Assembly (NCBI GenBank): GCA_963662335.2
Contig: CAXXVD010000003.1
Location: 448,001 to 512,000, forward strand
Length of the DNA stretch: 64,000 nt
Origin: Chloroflexota bacterium
Lineage (GTDB): Bacteria; Chloroflexota; UBA11872; VXOZ01
Direction of reading: 5' to 3'
Shown here: piece by piece, positions 3,473-62,267 of the stretch
How positions within the stretch are numbered: the first letter of the stretch is position 1
How the letters are laid out: the number at the start of each line of letters is the position of its first letter
Program-made: the position numbers and the translations under genes
The notes under the pieces: generated by a model
What the model saw: only the letters and a program-made list of their open reading frames with translations
What the model was told of the DNA's origin: nothing
The model's database searches: none

Positions 3473-3742
3473 TTGATACGTGTATGCCATAAATCTAGTA
3501 GATTCACGTGGGCGCTACTGAAACGCGGGCACAAGACCAGGTACCGCCTGATGAGAGCCAAGCACTTGCACCGCTACGTCGGCGAATTCGTTGAGCGCGC
3601 CAACGCAATCGGTCTGACGACTCTGGAGTGTCTTGGTCAGGCCGTGCGGCAATTAGACGGTCATGCTCTTTCGTATCGGGTTCTGGCGCAGCCCCAACCT
3701 CTGCCGGCTCGAGAGTCAGCATCGACTTCACCATCGCCTTGA
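3473..3742 (+). pseudogene. IS1595-family transposase C-terminal fragment
   Basis: WALLKRG...KHLHRYVGEF..R.N...LSYRVL matches the IS1595 C-terminal pattern; the N-terminal and DDE parts are missing. Confidence 0.82.
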
Positions 3743-16681: not shown

Positions 16682-19575
16682 CTATAGACGCCGGTTGGAG
16701 ATGACGGGTTCGGAGGCTAGGAGGCGGCGGAGGGTGGTGAGGTCGGGGAGGTTGAGGACTTGGGTGAGGCCGGTGTCCAGGGCTTGGCGGGCGGGGCAGT
16801 GGGCCATGTTGGGGAGACGCTCGAATTCGGCGGTGGCGAGGGTGTCGAAGAGGCGGGAGAGGGAGCGGAGTTGGGAGGCGGTGAGGTGGCGTGGGTCGAG
16901 AACGGGAACGTCTTCAAGGTCGGCCTTTTTCAATTGTACCCAACTACCTTCAGTAGTGTTGCGATTCGCCAGCAATGTCAAGATGCCTAAGCTGCTATTC
17001 ATATAGATCGCCAAGGCCCTGTCCCAGGTTTGATCATTAGTCTTGACTGGCCACCAGACATTGGACAAAACCGGCTTGTCGGCGGACAAAGCTACGACTC
17101 GCGCCGTATTCAGCCTTAGCCGTTGAACGACCAGGAGCGAGGCTGCTTTCGGCCAAAGTTGGTCAATACGTTTGAGTCGTCGGCCCGGGCGTGGCTCCGC
17201 GAGCGGGGCCAAGTGCTTATCCGGCTGCACGGTCATGCGCTTCCTGTGTTCAGTCTTGTTGCCCTCCACCATTGGATAGGCGGTAATTGCGTCCGTCGGG
17301 TCGAATCCGTCGCGCACGTCTCTAACGTCGGGGCCGATTGCACCGATTTCTCCTAGCGGGCAGAGGGGTATGCTGGCGGTTGAAACTTCGCCCGGCACCC
17401 AGACTTCCCCGGCGTCCAACAGTCGCACGGCGCTGCGGATGACGTCGGCACGGGCAAACTGGACGCCGAACCACTGCTTGCCAGAGAGGTCCGCTTCCGG
17501 AATCGAAACAACCTCTCCCACATGGCGGCCGTCTACTCCCAGGAGCGCCGTGCCTGTCTCTTCCAAGTTCGCCGGAGCTGTGGCGGAGACGGCTTGGGCG
17601 ACGCGGTGCGCGGCTGTGGGGCCATTGGGATTCTGCCAGAGGTTGACGAAGGTGGTGCGGGGTTGGGGGGCGTGCTGCTCATCAGGAGACGGATTCCGGC
17701 TTTCGCCGGAATGACGAGTGGAAGGGGATTGACGGGGTGAGGCGGTGGAGCGGCGCGTGGCGATGAGCAGCGCTTCCGAGAGGTCGGTGCTGTCGGAGAA
17801 GTTCCAGCGCTGGGGGTCGTGGGACGTTATCACCACATCGAGGGTGAAGTCCTGCTCGATCAGGGCGCGGGTCTGCGCCCAGGAGGGGCCGGTGCAGACG
17901 GTGAGGGGCAAGACCAAGGCGAGCCGGCCCTCGCCGGGCAGCATCTTGTCTGAAACGGCCGCCACGAACGCGGCGCCAAGTTCGGCAGTAGCGGAGGCTT
18001 GCCGCGACTTGAGGCGGCGCGACAGTTCGTCTTGCAGTTTGCGCCGTTCCGCCGGGGGCAGGCTGCCGAACAGCAGATTGCCGCCAACCGAGCGCGTAAA
18101 CGGCGGGTTCATGATCGCCAGGTCAAGTTTCGGCAGCTTTGCGGTCTGGCGTTCCGCCGCGCCGCCGGGCCCGCCGCCGGTTATGCGGCGCGCGTCCCCG
18201 GCTCGTCCGGCGACAGAGCGTGTTGCACCAGCGCCTCGTCCGTGCCCAGGTAGTCCAGCGACCCCAGGTTGACGCGCTCGCCCTCCACGCCCAGGGGCAT
18301 GACGTGGAGGTTCATGCGGTCGAACTCGATGTGGGGATTGAGCATCGCCAGGCTGGTGGCGGCGAAGTGGATGGCGGAAAGCTGCACGTCGTAGCCGTGC
18401 AGGGCCTGTTCCACCATGGCTTTGTGGAGCGCGGCGGCGCGGGCGCCGCCCGCGGCCTTGTGGCGGCGTTCCGCCTCGGCGGCTACGGCCATGAGCAGCG
18501 TGCCGGTGCCGCAGGCCAGGTCGGCCACGTTGAGCGAGGCGGGAAACTCGTGGTCGCGCCAGTCCACGCCCGGCGGCCACTCGTGGAAGACCAGCCGCGC
18601 CAGCAGCGTGGCGGCCGGCACGGACGTATAGTACGCGCCGGTGAACTTGGCGTCGGTTAAGAGCGTGTGGAAGAGCCGGCCGGAGAGGTCGTGGCCTTCC
18701 ACCTTGCGCGTCTCGTCCACCGCCTTGACCAGCGGCGCGATGACGGGCGTGCGCACGTCGGCCGGCCCGTCCAGCAGCACGTCCAGGATGTCGGCGGCCA
18801 GTGCAAAGACCGGCACGTAGTCGATTTCCTTGCAGATGAAGCGCCAGGCGTCCCGCAGGCTGGGAAGGCCTCGGCTCGAGGCTTCGCGGACAGTTTTCAC
18901 GTCATCGTTCTCATCGGCCAGGCGGTCCTGGAAGGCAAGGGCGTTGAAGAGCGCCAAGCAGCCGATGCGCAAGGCGGCGGCGCGGTTCTTCTCCTGGTCG
19001 GTCTCGGCAATGAGGTCGGCGATGCGGCGGGCGCTGCGCTGGTGCTGGGCAAGCGGGTACACTGCCTGCTCCAAGGCGTATTCAATCGCGCCGGCGGCGG
19101 CCTGCACCTGGTCGATGCCTTGCAATTCCAAAGGCAGGGTGCGCAGGTGGTCGGCCAGGTCGTCAACGGAGCCGCCGCTCATGCGGCGCGGCGCGGGCGG
19201 CGCGTCCTCGGCCAGATCGAGCAGCGTGGGCCGCGCGGCCTGCCACCACTGGAGGTCAACCGCGGACTCCAGCGCGGCCTGGGTGTCGTCGTCATGCCTG
19301 ATGCGCTCGGGATAGAGCACGCCGAGCACGGCGAGGGCTTCCGGATAGGCGGCCAGGCGCGCTTGGAGTTGGGCTTCCAGTTGACTCTCCGCGCCCTGCC
19401 ACTTGCACTCCAGGAGGATCAGGCCGCTGCGCACGTTGACGCGCACGTCGGGCGCGCCCCGCCGGCTGCGGCGTTCGGCCCTGGCCCTCATGCCGCGGGC
19501 AGAGAGCATTTCCGCCAGCAGGACGTTGACGGCTTCTTCGCGGGTGGTTTCGGTTGGTTTGAGGCGAGATGCCAT
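16682..19575 (-). pseudogene. Type IIG-like restriction-modification fusion (PD-(D/E)xK nuclease, N6-adenine methyltransferase, specificity region), split by one frameshift near 18196
   Basis: PD...LECK and motif I DLACGTGTLL lie in ORF 18181-19575; motif IV IMNPPF and the C-terminus lie in another frame (16682 to about 18196). Confidence 0.85.
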
Positions 19576-19635
19576 GGTCTTTCGATGCCTTGTAGGGTTT
19601 GCCGCTGTGGGCACTTAGACTTTAGCACGCCGGCG

Positions 19636-23189: not shown

Positions 23190-24416
23190 ATGAGCGTTCT
23201 CAAGGGCAAGCGCATTCTGCTGGGCGTGTGCGGCAGCATCGCCGCGTTCAAGGCCGTGGCGTTGGCGAGCCAACTCACGCAGGCCGGGGCGGAAGTAGAC
23301 GCCATTCTCACCCCGGACGCCCAGCGGTTCGTGACGCCGCTCTCGTTCAGCAGTGTCACGCAGCGGCCGGCGTACGCGGAACTCTATACGCCCACGGCGG
23401 GCCGCATCTTGCACGTGGATCTGGCGGAAGAAGCCGACCTGCTGGCGGTAATTCCCGCCACCGCCCACACGTTGGCGCGCATGGCGTACGGGCTGGCCGA
23501 CGATCTCTTGACCTGCGTGCACCTCAGCACGCGGGCGCCGGTGCTGGTCGCGCCGGCCATGGACGGCGGCATGTACACCCATCCCGCCACGCAGGCCAAC
23601 GTCAGCACGCTGCGGGAGCGCGGCGTGCACGTCGTGGAACCGCTGGACGGCCGGCTGGCGTCGGGTCTGGTGGCGCAAGGACGGCTGCCGGAAGTGGACG
23701 CGCTGCTGGCGGAAATCCGCGCCGCGCTGGGACGGGACGGCCCGCTGGCGGGCAAGACCGTGGTCGTCACCGCGGGCGGCACGCAGGAGCCGCTGGACCC
23801 GGTGCGTTTCATTGGCAACCGCTCCAGCGGCAAGATGGGGTTTGCGCTGGCCGAAGCGGCGCGGGACTGCGGCGCGCGGGTGATCCTCATACAGGGCGCT
23901 ACTACCGCGCCGCCACCGGTGGGCATGGAAACGGCGCCGGTGACGACCGCCGCCGAGATGCGGGCCGCCGTAAACGAACACTGCGAACGGGCGGACGCGC
24001 TGATAATGGCGGGCGCGGTCGCCGACTACCGCCCGCAGACCGCCCACGGCCAGAAGGTGAAACGCGCCGGCGCGCCGCTCACGCTCACGTTGGTTGAGAA
24101 TGAAGACATCGTGGCGCAGGTACCGCCCACGCTCGTCAAGGTGGGTTTCGCGGCGGAGACCGAGAACCTGCTGGACAACGCGGCGGCAAAGATCGCAAAG
24201 AAGGGACTGGACCTGATCGTCGCCAACGACGTTTCCCAGCCCGGCAGCGGCTTTGGCGCGGACACGAACCAGGTGGTGTTCCTCAGCCGGGAGCAGCCGC
24301 CGGAACCGCTGCCGCTGCTGCCCAAGTCCGAGGTGGCCGCCGCGGTGCTGGAGCGGGTGGCGGCGCTGGTGCAACGGCGAGCCGGTGAATCCCCTCTCCC
24401 CGAGGGAGAGGGCTAG
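23190..24416 (+). CDS. coaBC: Phosphopantothenoylcysteine decarboxylase/ligase
   Basis: GSIAAFKA, APAM, TAGGTQEPLDPVRFIGNRSSGKMG, VGFAAET and IVANDV. Confidence 0.97.
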   Translation: MSVLKGKRILLGVCGSIAAFKAVALASQLTQAGAEVDAILTPDAQRFVTPLSFSSVTQRPAYAELYTPTAGRILHVDLAEEADLLAVIPATAHTLARMAYGLADDLLTCVHLSTRAPVLVAPAMDGGMYTHPATQANVSTLRERGVHVVEPLDGRLASGLVAQGRLPEVDALLAEIRAALGRDGPLAGKTVVVTAGGTQEPLDPVRFIGNRSSGKMGFALAEAARDCGARVILIQGATTAPPPVGMETAPVTTAAEMRAAVNEHCERADALIMAGAVADYRPQTAHGQKVKRAGAPLTLTLVENEDIVAQVPPTLVKVGFAAETENLLDNAAAKIAKKGLDLIVANDVSQPGSGFGADTNQVVFLSREQPPEPLPLLPKSEVAAAVLERVAALVQRRAGESPLPEGEG

Positions 24417-24425
24417 GGTGAGGGT
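24390..24425. repeat. Palindromic repeat family C (CCCTCACCCCGGCCCTCTCCC-N3-4-GGGAGAGGG)
   Basis: Copies at about 19813-19845, 25780-25810, 33428-33460, 34958-34990, 35177-35209, 44858-44890 and 52693-52724. Confidence 0.88.
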
Positions 24426-24589
24426 TCTCGGATTCCAAAGCCCCTGAACTGGTAGAAAGGGATTGAGAAGGGAATTGTATACGAGAGTAAACAGGGTATA
24501 GTAGAACCTCCGCCTACTGATAACCCTTGAAGCGTTTTCGGGAAACCCTTGACAGGCTGTGTCAGGGGTCGGTAGAATGCAAGGAGAGG

Positions 24590-24663
24590 TGCCCCTGGCG
24601 GGACTCGAACCCGCAGCCTCCCAGTTAGCAGCCGGGCGCTCAATCCAATTGAGCTACAGGGGC
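24590..24663 (-). tRNA. Class I tRNA with anticodon GCT (Ser by anticodon, Arg-like body)
   Basis: GCCCCTG-TA-GCTC-AATTGGATT-GAGC-G-CCCGG-CTGCTAA-CTGGG-AGGCT-GCGGG-TTCGAGT-CCCGC-CAGGGGC-A; all stems pair; CCA is not encoded. Confidence 0.9.
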
Positions 24664-24673
24664 ACCTTTTGCA

Positions 24674-24702
24674 ATTCTATATCACCGAGCAATGTTCGTC
24701 CA
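24674..24702 (-). promoter_or_regulatory. Sigma70-type promoter for the tRNA
   Basis: TGGACG-N17-TAGAAT ending 10 nt before the tRNA 5' end. Confidence 0.65.
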
Positions 24703-24721
24703 CCCTCTCGGCGGGCAAACG

Positions 24722-24746
24722 GAAACCCCCGGCGCTAGCCGGGGGT
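24722..24746 (-). terminator. Hairpin terminator after the 24823-25581 gene
   Basis: ACCCCCGGC/GCCGGGGGT stem followed by TTCCGTTT on the minus strand. Confidence 0.55.
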
Positions 24747-24822
24747 CATGGGGTTGAATCTAATCATCGCTGTCATCGCCTCTTTGCGGATCAGTCAATC
24801 TTATCTATTTTCCTCCAGTCGC

Positions 24823-25581
24823 TCATTCTTCAAAGAAGTATTCTTCCCCGCCATGCATCAGCATGTGATAGTCGCCAGGCGATTGCATCTCCGCTTTGCT
24901 TGGGTCTAGCTCATTGGCCGGCATTTCCCGGAGTAGAGCATGGGCGAACAGCGCATCCATCTTTCCAACCACGAAGAACTCCGGCTGTTGGCTGGCGCGG
25001 TCCCGCGTGATGCTCACTGTCTCGTCGTCCGCCAACTCAATGGCGACAATCTTGTTGAAGTTGACCCGGAAAGACCGCTCACCGCTGAAGTAGACGTGCT
25101 TGGTGGTAACGGCCATGATGCCTGTGCCACGGTCGAGGATCTCTTCGTACTCGACTGGCACGCCTTCCGACGCCCCGCCTCGCAGATAGACGCCTTTGGC
25201 TACCCGCACACTTGCCCCTCCTGAACGCCCGGATATTCTGCGGCTTGCGCGTTGCTCGAAGTAGCCTACGTTATCGAATACGTAGATGAGGTGCTCAGAC
25301 TTCAAGAACTTGAACGGCAGCGCCCCGTGGTTGCCCGACCAATCAATCTCAGGCAACTTGCCGTCATCGAGGATGTACAAGATGTTTTGCTGCATCTGCT
25401 GATGTTGCGCTATTGCCCGCTTCTCTCGTTCTTGCTTTCTAAAGAGTGCCTGTCTATCTTGCTCCTCCGCTTCCCGTTTGGCTTCCCGTTCTCGTTCTAT
25501 GGCTTCCAGTTCAGCCTGATGCCTGCGCCTGCTGGCTTCTTTGCTCTCGGCAATCTTGCGCTTCACGAAACTGAGCATCAT
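24823..25581 (-). CDS. Hypothetical protein (coiled-coil N-terminus, beta-rich C-domain), island gene
   Basis: AAAGGAGG RBS; GASVRVAKGVYLR...DRG...VTTKHVYF; atypical codon usage. Confidence 0.78.
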   Translation of the reverse strand: MMLSFVKRKIAESKEASRRRHQAELEAIEREREAKREAEEQDRQALFRKQEREKRAIAQHQQMQQNILYILDDGKLPEIDWSGNHGALPFKFLKSEHLIYVFDNVGYFEQRASRRISGRSGGASVRVAKGVYLRGGASEGVPVEYEEILDRGTGIMAVTTKHVYFSGERSFRVNFNKIVAIELADDETVSITRDRASQQPEFFVVGKMDALFAHALLREMPANELDPSKAEMQSPGDYHMLMHGGEEYFFEE

Positions 25582-25901
25582 GCGCCTCCTTTGCGGCACG
25601 AGCAGGGCAGCTACAGGCCATAGCTAACTCACCGACGCCGCACCCCAAGGAAGACGCATGACACTTTGACTAGGCTTCCGCCTCTCATTTGCGGAGAATG
25701 TGAGGCTAACTGTGGCGAAAGTATCATACCATACGTGCATCCCTGATAACCACCTATCGTGTATTGTCACGCAATTAGTCCCCTCACCCCGGCCCTCTCC
25801 CCAGAGAGAGAGTAATTTCGTTTCTCGGCTTGAGTTACGCAAAGGTTTCCATAGGGAGAGGCAGTGATTGCCTGCGGCGGAGCGAGCGCGGGCGCCGTTC
25901 C

Positions 25902-29267: not shown

Positions 29268-30656
29268 TTGAGTGACACTGAAAGTTTTGCATGTGAACAA
29301 GGGGAGTTTACGGATGTCGAGGGTGCACCCTTTGCTTATGATGCAGGGTTGATTGATCAAATTGAGGAACTAGATTGTCGCGTTCGAGCAATGCGCGAGG
29401 TAGGCAAGTTGGCGCCAGAAGTTCTGGGACGAATTCGTCAGTACTTCCGCATAAAGAGCATTTATCACTCAAACGCAATAGAGGGCAACCTGCTTGACAT
29501 CGGCGAGACGCGCCAGGTTGTTGAGGCAGGCTTGACGATTGCAGGAAAACCTCTCAAGGATCAAGCTGAAGCGAAGAACCTAAACCAAGCTCTAGATTTC
29601 TTGGAACAGTTGGCATCTAGCACAGAGGAACAAATATCGATTAGCGACATAAGGCAAATCCACAAGCTAATCCTTCAAGGAATTGACGATGACAATGCTG
29701 GGGCGTACCGAAGTGTAGATGTGGCAATTTCGGGGTCGGACTTTTCTCCTCCCGAACCGATTGATGTCGAACCCCAAATGCGGGATTTCATTGAGTGGTT
29801 GGGCCCTGCTTCGCTCAAGTTCGGTGAAGATATCATTGAGACTGCTGCCGCCTGTCATGCCTGGTTCGCTCAAGTTCACCCGTTTGCAGATGGCAACGGA
29901 CGAACTGCTCGTATCCTGATGAACCTCGTCTTGATGAGAGCCGGGTACCCCATCGCAGTGATTACACGTGACGATCGAGCGCGTTACTACGATGCTCTAG
30001 AGGAATCCCAGGCATCGGACTTAACTCCATTCATCGCACTAATACTTGAGTGTGTTTCTGAAACTCTCGAAGAGTACGAACAGGCAGCAGAGGAACAAAG
30101 GGAGCAAACCGAGTGGGCTGAATCGTTAGCCAGCCAATTCACTCAATCTGAGCAAATCCGCGCAAGAAACGAGTACGAACTTTGGAAAAGCGCTATGGAA
30201 CTCTTGGTCAACCACTATCAACAGCTTGTGCATCGGCTGGATGAGAGCGCCCAGCTTGGTAGAGTATACATAACCGTTTTTGGCGTCCTTGGATATGAGA
30301 AATACCTCGCGCTTAGTCAGAGGCAGTCAGCCAAGAAGACATGGTTCTTCCGAGTCGATTTTCGAAGTGGAGAAAAGTCAGCTAGGTATCTTCACTTCTT
30401 CGGTTACTCAAGCCCCCCTATGTCAGATCACGCAAGGGTCTCACTCTATTTGTCGAGAGAGGAGTCTCCGTTCTACTTTGAGAAGCTTGACAACTTGAGC
30501 ACGCCAAATGTACCGCCTTTGCGCGAAATTGGGTATGCGACAAGGGATGAGTTGTTTGTCGCGCGTTACGGCTATGCCCAGTGTGAAAAATCCAAAATAG
30601 AGAAAATCGCCACTGGCTTCTTTGAGGATGTAATCAGGTTTCACTTTAAACAATAG
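29268..30656 (+). CDS. Fic-domain protein with an uncharacterised C-terminal extension (lower-GC island)
   Basis: Catalytic HPFADGNGRTAR; autoinhibitory SNAIEGN; AGGAGG RBS. Confidence 0.93.
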   Translation: MSDTESFACEQGEFTDVEGAPFAYDAGLIDQIEELDCRVRAMREVGKLAPEVLGRIRQYFRIKSIYHSNAIEGNLLDIGETRQVVEAGLTIAGKPLKDQAEAKNLNQALDFLEQLASSTEEQISISDIRQIHKLILQGIDDDNAGAYRSVDVAISGSDFSPPEPIDVEPQMRDFIEWLGPASLKFGEDIIETAAACHAWFAQVHPFADGNGRTARILMNLVLMRAGYPIAVITRDDRARYYDALEESQASDLTPFIALILECVSETLEEYEQAAEEQREQTEWAESLASQFTQSEQIRARNEYELWKSAMELLVNHYQQLVHRLDESAQLGRVYITVFGVLGYEKYLALSQRQSAKKTWFFRVDFRSGEKSARYLHFFGYSSPPMSDHARVSLYLSREESPFYFEKLDNLSTPNVPPLREIGYATRDELFVARYGYAQCEKSKIEKIATGFFEDVIRFHFKQ

Positions 30657-62190: not shown

Positions 62191-62267
62191 TGGCCTCCCT
62201 GGGGCGACTCGAACGCCCGACACGCAGTTTAGGAAACTGCTGCTCTATCCAACTGAGCTACAGGGAG
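62191..62267 (-). tRNA. tRNA-Arg(CCT)
   Basis: Complete cloverleaf, anticodon loop TTCCTAA, A20 in the D-loop and encoded CCA. Confidence 0.96.

Follow-up and report, generated by a model that had tools for sequence, protein, structure and literature searches.

We describe a transfer RNA (tRNA) gene near position 472588 of contig CAXXVD010000003.1 (C3) that joins a serine anticodon, GCU, to an arginine-type body; the stretch of this contig analyzed here (the window) comprises 64,000 nucleotides (nt), and its source genome is labeled G000. The gene is a canonical class-I tRNA gene that lies in a foreign insertion of low GC content, and the codons AGC and AGU (AGY) that its anticodon addresses are still read as serine. 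Our favored explanation, to which we give an even chance, is that the gene encodes an intact, horizontally acquired accessory tRNA of arginine identity with a serine anticodon, that is, a natural missense tRNA and not a change of the genetic code. Two points go beyond the preliminary description of this stretch: the foreign insertion is species-specific, and tRNAs of this kind form a recurrent class that is linked to mobile elements.

ARAGORN calls two tRNAs in the window, one of them with the anticodon GCU; the gene, its anticodon and the promoter-like site that precedes it are located as follows.

24588..24663, minus strand: tRNA gene of 76 nt with class-I shape, arginine-type body and anticodon GCU (ARAGORN, Rfam and minimum-free-energy fold)
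24627..24629, minus strand: anticodon GCU (AGC on the plus strand), position 35 of the gene; same letters in 4/4 runs
24674..24702, minus strand: putative sigma-70-like promoter, TGGACG-17-TAGAAT, with 10 nt between it and the 5' end of the tRNA; consensus match 9/12

The Rfam family RF00005 matches the gene over the whole model (positions 1-71 of 71; E 1.5e-14), with 69.6 bits compared with a gathering score of 29, and the cloverleaf is the minimum-free-energy fold (-37.3 kcal/mol). The minus-strand sequence reads GCCCCUG UA GCUC AAUUGGAUU GAGC G CCCGG CUGCUAA CUGGG AGGCU GCGGG UUCGAGU CCCGC CAGGGGC A CC, with complete pairing in the acceptor (7/7), D (4/4), anticodon (5/5, including one G-U) and T (5/5) stems. 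In the D loop, AAUUGGAUU, A20 directly follows G18 and G19; the anticodon loop reads CU-GCU-AA, 5 nt (AGGCU) make up the variable loop, and A15/U48 and A73 are present, so that the fully paired cloverleaf and each of the bases listed in the preliminary description are seen in the minus-strand sequence. The invariant bases (U8, A14, G18, G19, U33, G53, U54, U55, C56, A58 and C61) are all there, the positions of the tertiary interactions are canonical with U21 as the sole exception, and the CCA end is encoded in part only (ACC, then T). The preliminary description had also given the tRNA a -35/-10 promoter of its own, for which the putative site listed above is the counterpart; the span that it assigned, 24590-24702, combines the tRNA with its promoter, because the promoter-like site reaches 24702.

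The body of the tRNA points to arginine. According to Table 1 and the arginine section of PMC9976931, the bacterial arginine identity set comprises A20, C35, U or G at 36, A or G at 73 and the acceptor pairs G2-C71 and C3-G70, and the bacterial serine set comprises a large variable region and G73. The GCU tRNA has A20, C35, U36, A73 and C3-G70 from the arginine set and neither of the serine marks (no long variable arm, no G73); judged by these sets, the arginine-type, not serine-type, body proposed in the preliminary description stands, and the anticodon GCU falls outside the NCG or YCU that define an arginine decoder. Overall likeness places the tRNA between isotypes: its best BLAST matches in the taxonomic class are tRNA-Asn genes (80% over 71 nt), followed by tRNA-Arg(CCU) (77%), and within G000 its highest identity, 72%, is shared by the genome's own tRNA-Asn and tRNA-Arg(CCU), with the arginine tRNAs of G000 spanning 66-72%. 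The resemblance to the tRNA-Arg(CCU) at 62191 to which the preliminary description had drawn attention (76% over 69 nt, 72% globally) is therefore no greater than the resemblance to tRNA-Asn. We assign the body to the arginine type because its exact 20-nt D arm sits in arginine tRNAs and not in asparagine tRNAs: the D arm occurs at 19 places in GTDB species genomes, 14 of them inside ARAGORN-called tRNAs, and these 14 comprise 12 with arginine anticodons (ACG in four, CCU in six, UCU in one and UCG in one), none with an asparagine anticodon and two odd tRNAs, one of which combines the anticodon ACU with the same acceptor stem as the GCU tRNA. Two more partial copies, read by eye, have CCG and CCU loops. 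The same arginine-type D arm was seen in a metagenome-assembled genome (MAG) of the Vicinamibacteria (L040), where it occurs with the loop CUUGCUA; this tRNA is called Ala(UGC), yet it is without G3:U70 and has U at 37.

The decoding set of the genome provides the context in which this tRNA would act. The 51 ARAGORN calls on the five contigs of G000 include a normal long-arm tRNA-Ser(GCU) (C3:167554-167647; 94 nt, G73, anticodon loop CUGCUAA), three other serine tRNAs and five arginine tRNAs (UCU, CCU, UCG, CCG and GCG); thus, the normal Ser(GCU) and Arg(UCU) tRNAs that the preliminary description had proposed to look for are both there. The genome has one arginyl-tRNA synthetase (ArgRS): PF03485 and PF00750 match once each, in the same 569-amino acid (aa) open reading frame (ORF) on contig C1 (248.9-250.6 kb), far from the tRNA, and the enzyme has the D-loop-binding N domain (Arg_tRNA_synt_N). 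It also has one seryl-tRNA synthetase (SerRS), a standard enzyme equipped with the arm for binding long variable arms. In a comparison of 20 non-overlapping orthologue pairs from G000 and the closest same-genus genome (G011), the AGY codons of G000 lie opposite serine in 92 of 120 cases and opposite arginine in 4 of 120, and the UCN codons lie opposite serine in 158 of 196; an unfiltered count that includes overlapping frames gives the same direction. At conserved serine positions, AGY-to-UCN differences number seven and UCN-to-AGY differences three. These alignments show neither a reassignment of AGY in G000 nor a flight from AGY, and, with the normal tRNA-Ser(GCU) in place, they bear out the preliminary statement that the code has not been changed genome-wide. 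As separate observations on the decoding set, no tRNA-His is found among the 51 calls from this genome, which is rated 96% complete, and the CGY codons are served by tRNA-Arg(GCG), not by the usual ACG.

The tRNA is real, and the natural population carries it stably. In Logan contigs that span the tRNA, drawn from four runs of two studies, no differing letter occurs at 24588-24663; at the wobble base, where the preliminary description had left room for TCT as the true anticodon, they have GCT, so the anticodon is neither an assembly error nor a private mutation. One run from the second study (X5) represents a diverged strain, with nine differences in the piece 24397-24772, all outside the tRNA, and with 20 substitutions in 561 nt of non-coding flank plus indels (~3.6%); from the flank rate ~2.7 differences would be expected in the tRNA, and 0/76 are found (Poisson P ~0.07).

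The tRNA and an ORF upstream of it (P0001) share the insertion, which lies between coaBC and groES and contains or borders the following further features.

24380..25888, no strand: low-GC insertion of ~1.5 kb between coaBC and groES, with the tRNA and P0001 (synteny, GC)
24389..24426, no strand: short dispersed repeat bordering the insertion on the coaBC side, with many copies of 89-100% identity (most >=95%) in genomes of the genus
24544..24570, minus strand: hairpin followed by UUUCCC, 18-44 nt downstream of the tRNA; fold -14.1 kcal/mol, z -2.6
24549..24578, plus strand: promoter-like TTGACA-18-TAGAAT directed antisense into the tRNA; consensus match 11/12, overlapping the palindrome of the downstream hairpin
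24724..24747, minus strand: terminator-like GC-rich 10-bp hairpin followed by UUUCCGUUUG; fold -21.6 kcal/mol; it closes the upstream ORF and sets this ORF apart from the tRNA promoter
24823..25599, minus strand: P0001, a 258-aa ORF upstream of the tRNA on the same strand (translation), with a long N-terminal helix and a PH-like beta-sandwich
25779..25861, no strand: second dispersed repeat, bordering the insertion on the groES side, with many copies of 74-97% identity in the genus and in G000 and with raised depth

In G011, the coaBC match stops at window position 24379 and the groES-side match starts at 25889, with 123 nt between them; in the same-genus genomes with both flanks matched, the coaBC-groES spacing is 123 to ~445 nt, compared with 1.5 kb here. 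The GC content is 0.54-0.58 within the insertion and 0.62-0.74 outside. The insertion is missing in 16/16 same-genus genomes, the tRNA gene is found in 0/16 of them, and an Arg-like GCU/ACU tRNA occurs in 1/98 genomes of the taxonomic class, that one being G000; the search for the same gene in relatives that the preliminary description had suggested thus succeeds in strain X5, where the gene is unchanged, but in none of the same-genus genomes. The repeat at 24389-24426 shows very high metagenome contig depth and contig breaks. The hairpin at 24544-24570 may be a weak terminator of the GCU tRNA; in strain X5, a 26-nt insertion duplicates the palindrome downstream of the tRNA.

P0001 has no match in Pfam, PADLOC or NCBIfam and only two weak ones in PHROGs (E 0.0014 and 0.075), both with families whose function is unknown; its 34 homologues are all unnamed. 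In the AlphaFold model (predicted local distance difference test, pLDDT, 89.6), for which the best Foldseek rows are all PH/PTB/Ran-binding domains (E 2.7e-3 or weaker), P0001 is predicted to consist of a coiled coil and a PH-like domain. Its differences in strain X5 fall at third codon positions in 14 of 16 cases; therefore, P0001 is a real gene under purifying selection. A functional pairing of P0001 with the tRNA, for instance as a toxin or defence gene and its partner tRNA, was considered and rejected, given that P0001 has no Pfam, PADLOC or NCBIfam match and its homologues in G003 and G011 occur without a tRNA nearby; also, no ORF resembling P0001 is found among the flanking ORFs of the other members of the tRNA class described below. 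Nor do the six aligned AGY codons of P0001, which face S, S, S, K, N and G, give any sign that AGY is recoded as arginine in P0001 itself. Elsewhere in the window, a Fic/DOC family ORF lies near the locus (29268-30656, plus strand), and a 477-aa ORF (18181-19614, minus strand) has a weak Vsr-like match below the curated cut-off.

Searches for a parent of the GCU tRNA returned little. With the acceptor, D and T arms fixed and the anticodon arm free, there are 0 matches in GTDB genome contigs and 0 in IMG/VR, and with all but the anticodon fixed there are 0 in the JGI metagenomes; the preliminary suggestion of a U34G derivative of tRNA-Arg(UCU) is therefore not borne out, as in these three collections this backbone is not found with any other anticodon. 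A search with the anticodon-stem pattern yielded only three unrelated tRNAs (Lys, Arg ACG and Asn), and the best phage matches, with 78-80% identity, are of mixed isotype (Arg; Met/Ile in T4-like phages); both results are uninformative on the origin.

The GCU tRNA is one member of a wider class, which we defined by an Arg-like D arm in which GGA follows the start of the D loop, by a variable loop of 5 nt and by the anticodon loop C-Y-R-C-U-A-A, with GCU and ACU as the only anticodons. The class has at least 117 loci in GTDB species genomes (81 GCT and 36 ACT among the matches listed) and 47 in IMG/VR. Among the GTDB matches listed, to which all counts of intact and imperfect members given here refer, 58 of 117 have 7/7 acceptor pairs, and all 58 sequences are distinct; of these 58 intact members, 50 carry A or G at position 73 and 21 carry C33. 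In the remaining 59 the acceptor stem is imperfect, and they resemble fragments or pseudogenes. Among the viral matches, many are broken copies that recur or are located close to the end of a prophage contig, and some members of the class sit in tRNA arrays. The class is sparse but widespread across phyla, on variable or mobile DNA and in many cases immediately upstream of an IS1-like transposase. The nearest relative of the GCU tRNA among the matches listed is L160 (87% identity), and L221 is the sole tRNA from metagenomes in which this D arm was found together with a GCU/ACU anticodon. We found no description of Arg-type GCU/ACU tRNAs in the open full-text literature, a search whose scope did not extend to supplements and subscription journals.

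Several subgroups of the class have peculiarities of their own. At five loci from several Alphaproteobacteria and one Ignavibacteriota MAG, a second tRNA accompanies the Arg-like GCU tRNA, at a distance of ~480 nt (L060, L099 and L106) or within ~10 nt (L114 and L148); the second tRNA is a long-arm tRNA with the anticodon AGA, UGA or UUA at L060, L099, L106 and L148 and a short, 76-nt tRNA with UGA at L114, and the UUA anticodon of the second tRNAs at L106 and L148 would read the stop codon UAA. In planctomycetes, seven loci (L086, L121, L124, L128, L133, L149 and L156) have a conserved tRNA-like sequence with a perfect GCU/ACU anticodon arm and 3-5 acceptor pairs; several of these sequences adjoin tRNA arrays, and ARAGORN calls few of them. 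In a subgroup with the anticodon ACU (L139, L184, L204, L214, L310 and others), the anticodon stem has two conserved mismatches (GGUCC / GUUCC), and this conservation suggests an anticodon arm of unusual shape. Finally, the flanks of L059, L073, L077, L101, L104 and L084 encode a SAVED domain, DUF4238, DUF6602, an FRG domain, a type I restriction-modification specificity subunit and a cytosine methylase; such defence- or mobile-type genes fit variable regions of the genome.

The class is linked to two types of transposase. At the 80 class loci with 1.5-kb flanks, the recurrent families of flanking ORFs are an IS1595-type transposase and an IS1-like DDE transposase (IS, insertion sequence); with short flanks included, 11 loci lie beside an IS1-like and nine beside an IS1595 transposase. 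The neighbor is associated with intact tRNAs: among the long-flank loci, 15/39 intact and 1/41 non-intact tRNAs have a transposase neighbor (Fisher P 4e-5). At both L160 and L221, the tRNA is followed by an IS1-like transposase. To avoid the bias of a search for GCU/ACU, we also sampled from the transposase side, using the best 80 of at least 582 relatives. In this sample, a tRNA of any kind is present at 10 loci and directly upstream of the transposase at seven; four of these seven are Arg-like GCU/ACU tRNAs, one of them already known from the pattern scan, and the other three are a Thr(CGU) tRNA with the same GGAUU D-loop motif, a tRNA with an 8-nt anticodon loop and a Leu tRNA. None of the seven has an arginine anticodon. 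In another Bradyrhizobium genome, an ACU tRNA lies 123 nt upstream of the transposase, and two other Bradyrhizobium copies are without a tRNA.

The nature of this link was examined in the tRNA-transposase units themselves. Self-recoding of the transposase was considered and rejected: its conserved arginine columns are never AGY in 12 linked and 74 unlinked copies, and therefore the tRNA does not recode its neighbor; the conserved serine columns use AGY in linked and unlinked copies alike. In 12 units, the divergence of the tRNA and that of the transposase are not correlated (Spearman -0.04, Mantel P 0.39); inverted repeats are visible in two of nine units and begin 30-42 nt after the tRNA, and the units are single-copy in the six genomes searched. 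These data fit transposons that land beside dispensable tRNAs at least as well as transposons that carry tRNAs; on the landing view, the transposons survive beside such tRNAs because the tRNAs are dispensable. A tRNA of the transposon-associated type would have an IS1-like or IS1595 transposase within ~0.1-0.3 kb. In G000, a tblastn search with six transposases found none near C3:472588; only weak IS1595 remnants were found in the genome (at C3:46.3 kb and at window 3509-3691), and no recognizable IS end lies beside the GCU tRNA. An 11-nt match to the spacer of L160 and a TGTCAAG palindrome near the GCU tRNA were read by eye.

If the GCU tRNA is an arginine tRNA that misreads serine codons, it would act through a chain of steps that, on the sequence evidence, could equally well hold or fail: the tRNA would be transcribed from its own promoter and processed; the single ArgRS of G000 would charge it, reading A20, C35, U36 and A73 but not position 34; and the arginine-charged tRNA would compete with tRNA-Ser(GCU) at AGC and AGU, with insertion of arginine for serine at a low rate. 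Lacking the long variable arm, the tRNA should not be a substrate of SerRS; it shares the anticodon loop CUGCUAA with the genuine tRNA-Ser(GCU), with which the charged tRNA would therefore compete. Several points weigh against this explanation. The pair 2:71 is C-G, in contrast to the G2-C71 listed in Table 1 of PMC9976931 (C2 is also found in four of the five arginine tRNAs of G000), and the promoter is a consensus match only. AGC is a common serine codon (120 AGY compared with 196 UCN in the 20 orthologues), so an efficient arginine-inserting tRNA would be costly; no drift away from AGY is seen in G000. According to PMC5389517, irregular tRNAs broadly of this sort received an amino acid but failed to decode in Escherichia coli. 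The conservation of the tRNA between the strains is suggestive, not significant, and thus a weak signal. Finally, the homologues of P0001 in G003 and G011, which lie elsewhere, have no tRNA within ~3.5 kb, and therefore no conserved module argues for function.

A broader version of this explanation is more speculative, and we hold it only tentatively. On this version, the GCU tRNA would be an orphan copy of an undescribed, widely dispersed mobile class that moves between phyla on small elements tied to IS1-like and IS1595 transposases, is charged with arginine, reads AGY and is kept by selection; the class would be either a device for deliberate serine-to-arginine mistranslation or a tRNA-shaped signal that transposons use or target. 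Selection on the class is proposed on the basis of the 58 distinct intact sequences, their compensatory stem changes and the fixed GCU/ACU anticodon.

The same link to transposases can be read in another way, which we consider less probable than decoding by the GCU tRNA but still a serious possibility: the GCU tRNA would not decode at all but would be a passenger, made and perhaps charged yet excluded from translation, or would matter only as RNA or DNA for mobile elements (for instance a preferred IS1-type landing site or a processing signal), in this genome as a leftover of such an element. The strong enrichment of intact members beside IS1-like and IS1595 transposases fits this idea, as do the seven tRNAs directly upstream of the transposase in the best 80 of at least 582 relatives, four of which are Arg-like GCU/ACU tRNAs and none of which has an arginine anticodon. 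The presence of C33 in place of U33 in 21 of the 58 intact members also agrees with it; a base other than U33 is a feature of natural mistranslating tRNAs according to the review PMC11415595. In addition, some irregular tRNAs are charged but kept out of translation (PMC5389517). The GCU tRNA itself, however, retains U33, a canonical anticodon loop and canonical tertiary positions except U21, so that nothing visible would bar it from the ribosome. The mobile form of the idea is further weakened by the absence of a transposase or recognizable IS end beside the tRNA, by the lack of co-divergence of tRNA and transposase in the 12 units, and by the two units with visible repeats, in which the repeats put the IS end 30-42 nt past the tRNA.

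A decaying pseudogene, that is, a redundant copy of tRNA-Arg(UCU or CCU) with a chance mutation at the wobble base, is unlikely. Decay does occur: G000 contains two decayed tRNA copies, at C4:154842-154917 and C5:555746-555820, the acceptor stem is imperfect in half of the class members listed (59/117), and serine and arginine tRNA sets are already complete in the genome. The copy on C4 is near-identical to tRNA-Ala(UGC) and lies downstream of an Ile-Ala pair, its spoiled anticodon loop leading to a call of Tyr(GUA); that on C5 is a copy of tRNA-Val(GAC) with a broken acceptor stem. The GCU tRNA, in contrast, has all of its stems intact and its tertiary positions canonical except U21, shows 0/76 differences in strain X5 between flanks that have diverged by ~3.6%, and is not a recent copy of any tRNA of G000 (<=72% identity). 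No copy of the same backbone with an arginine anticodon is found in GTDB, IMG/VR or the JGI metagenomes, and GCU/ACU recurs in the 58 distinct intact sequences, with compensatory stem changes. An origin from tRNA-Asn(GUU) by U35C, with no arginine identity, is less probable still. Its attractions are that tRNA-Asn provides the best BLAST match in the taxonomic class, slightly ahead of Arg(CCU), that GUU and GCU are one step apart, and that the D loop, which starts with AAUUGG, and the variable loop, AGGNU, resemble those of tRNA-Asn. The identity set of tRNA-Asn is G34, U35, U36 and G73, of which the GCU tRNA lacks U35 and G73, having C35 and A73; furthermore, its 1:72 pair is G-C, although nearly all of the retrieved tRNA-Asn genes begin with U, and it has the A20 and GGAU motif of arginine tRNAs along with the D arm found in 12 arginine and no asparagine tRNAs. 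An assembly or sequencing error at the wobble base can be neglected for practical purposes: the four runs from two studies agree throughout the gene, and an error there would have shown, because the contigs report differences elsewhere in the stretch.

Natural tRNAs in which body and anticodon disagree are rare tests of the error tolerance of the code and of programmed mistranslation, and the known bacterial examples are proline-type (tRNAProX) or odd-shaped serine- or histidine-type (allo-tRNAs). Arginine at a common serine codon would be a harsh substitution, from neutral to charged; the persistence of the GCU tRNA in two diverged strains therefore raises the question of whether it is silenced, excluded from the ribosome or tolerated. 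The recurrence of the class across phyla, with intact members beside IS1-like and IS1595 transposases, suggests that mobile elements spread or use mismatched tRNAs. If so, this would bear on genome annotation, because naming by anticodon calls such tRNAs tRNA-Ser, and likewise on code-prediction tools and horizontal gene transfer.

Among known tRNAs, the bacterial tRNA-Arg(UCU/CCU) of the argU/argW type shares with the GCU tRNA the class-I shape, A20 in a GGAU(A/U) D loop, C35, U36, A37, A or G at 73 and the 5-nt variable loop, and the exact D arm is common to the GCU tRNA and to Arg(ACG/CCU/UCU/UCG) tRNAs of several phyla; unlike tRNA-Arg(UCU/CCU), the GCU tRNA has G34 and addresses the serine codons AGC/AGU instead of AGA/AGG. 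Canonical tRNA-Ser(GCU) has the same loop, CUGCUAA, and the same codons, but its long variable arm and G73 are both missing in the GCU tRNA. As described in the review PMC11415595, the tRNAProX family of Streptomyces resembles the GCU tRNA in that body and anticodon disagree and in that it is an accessory beside a complete normal set; however, tRNAProX is co-encoded with its own isoform of prolyl-tRNA synthetase and has A33/A34, whereas the GCU tRNA has no second ArgRS and keeps U33. In the allo-/irregular tRNAs of soil bacteria (Mukai et al., 2017; PMC5389517), some of which are charged yet unused in translation, the cloverleaf is 8/4 or 9/3, the variable arm is long and the identity is serine or histidine, in contrast to the 7/5 class-I, arginine-type GCU tRNA; the terms tRNAArg, A20 and ACU are absent from the main text of that paper. 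The combination of a standard 7/5 class-I shape, a predicted arginine identity and no private synthetase thus appears to set the GCU tRNA apart from the known tRNAs of hybrid identity.

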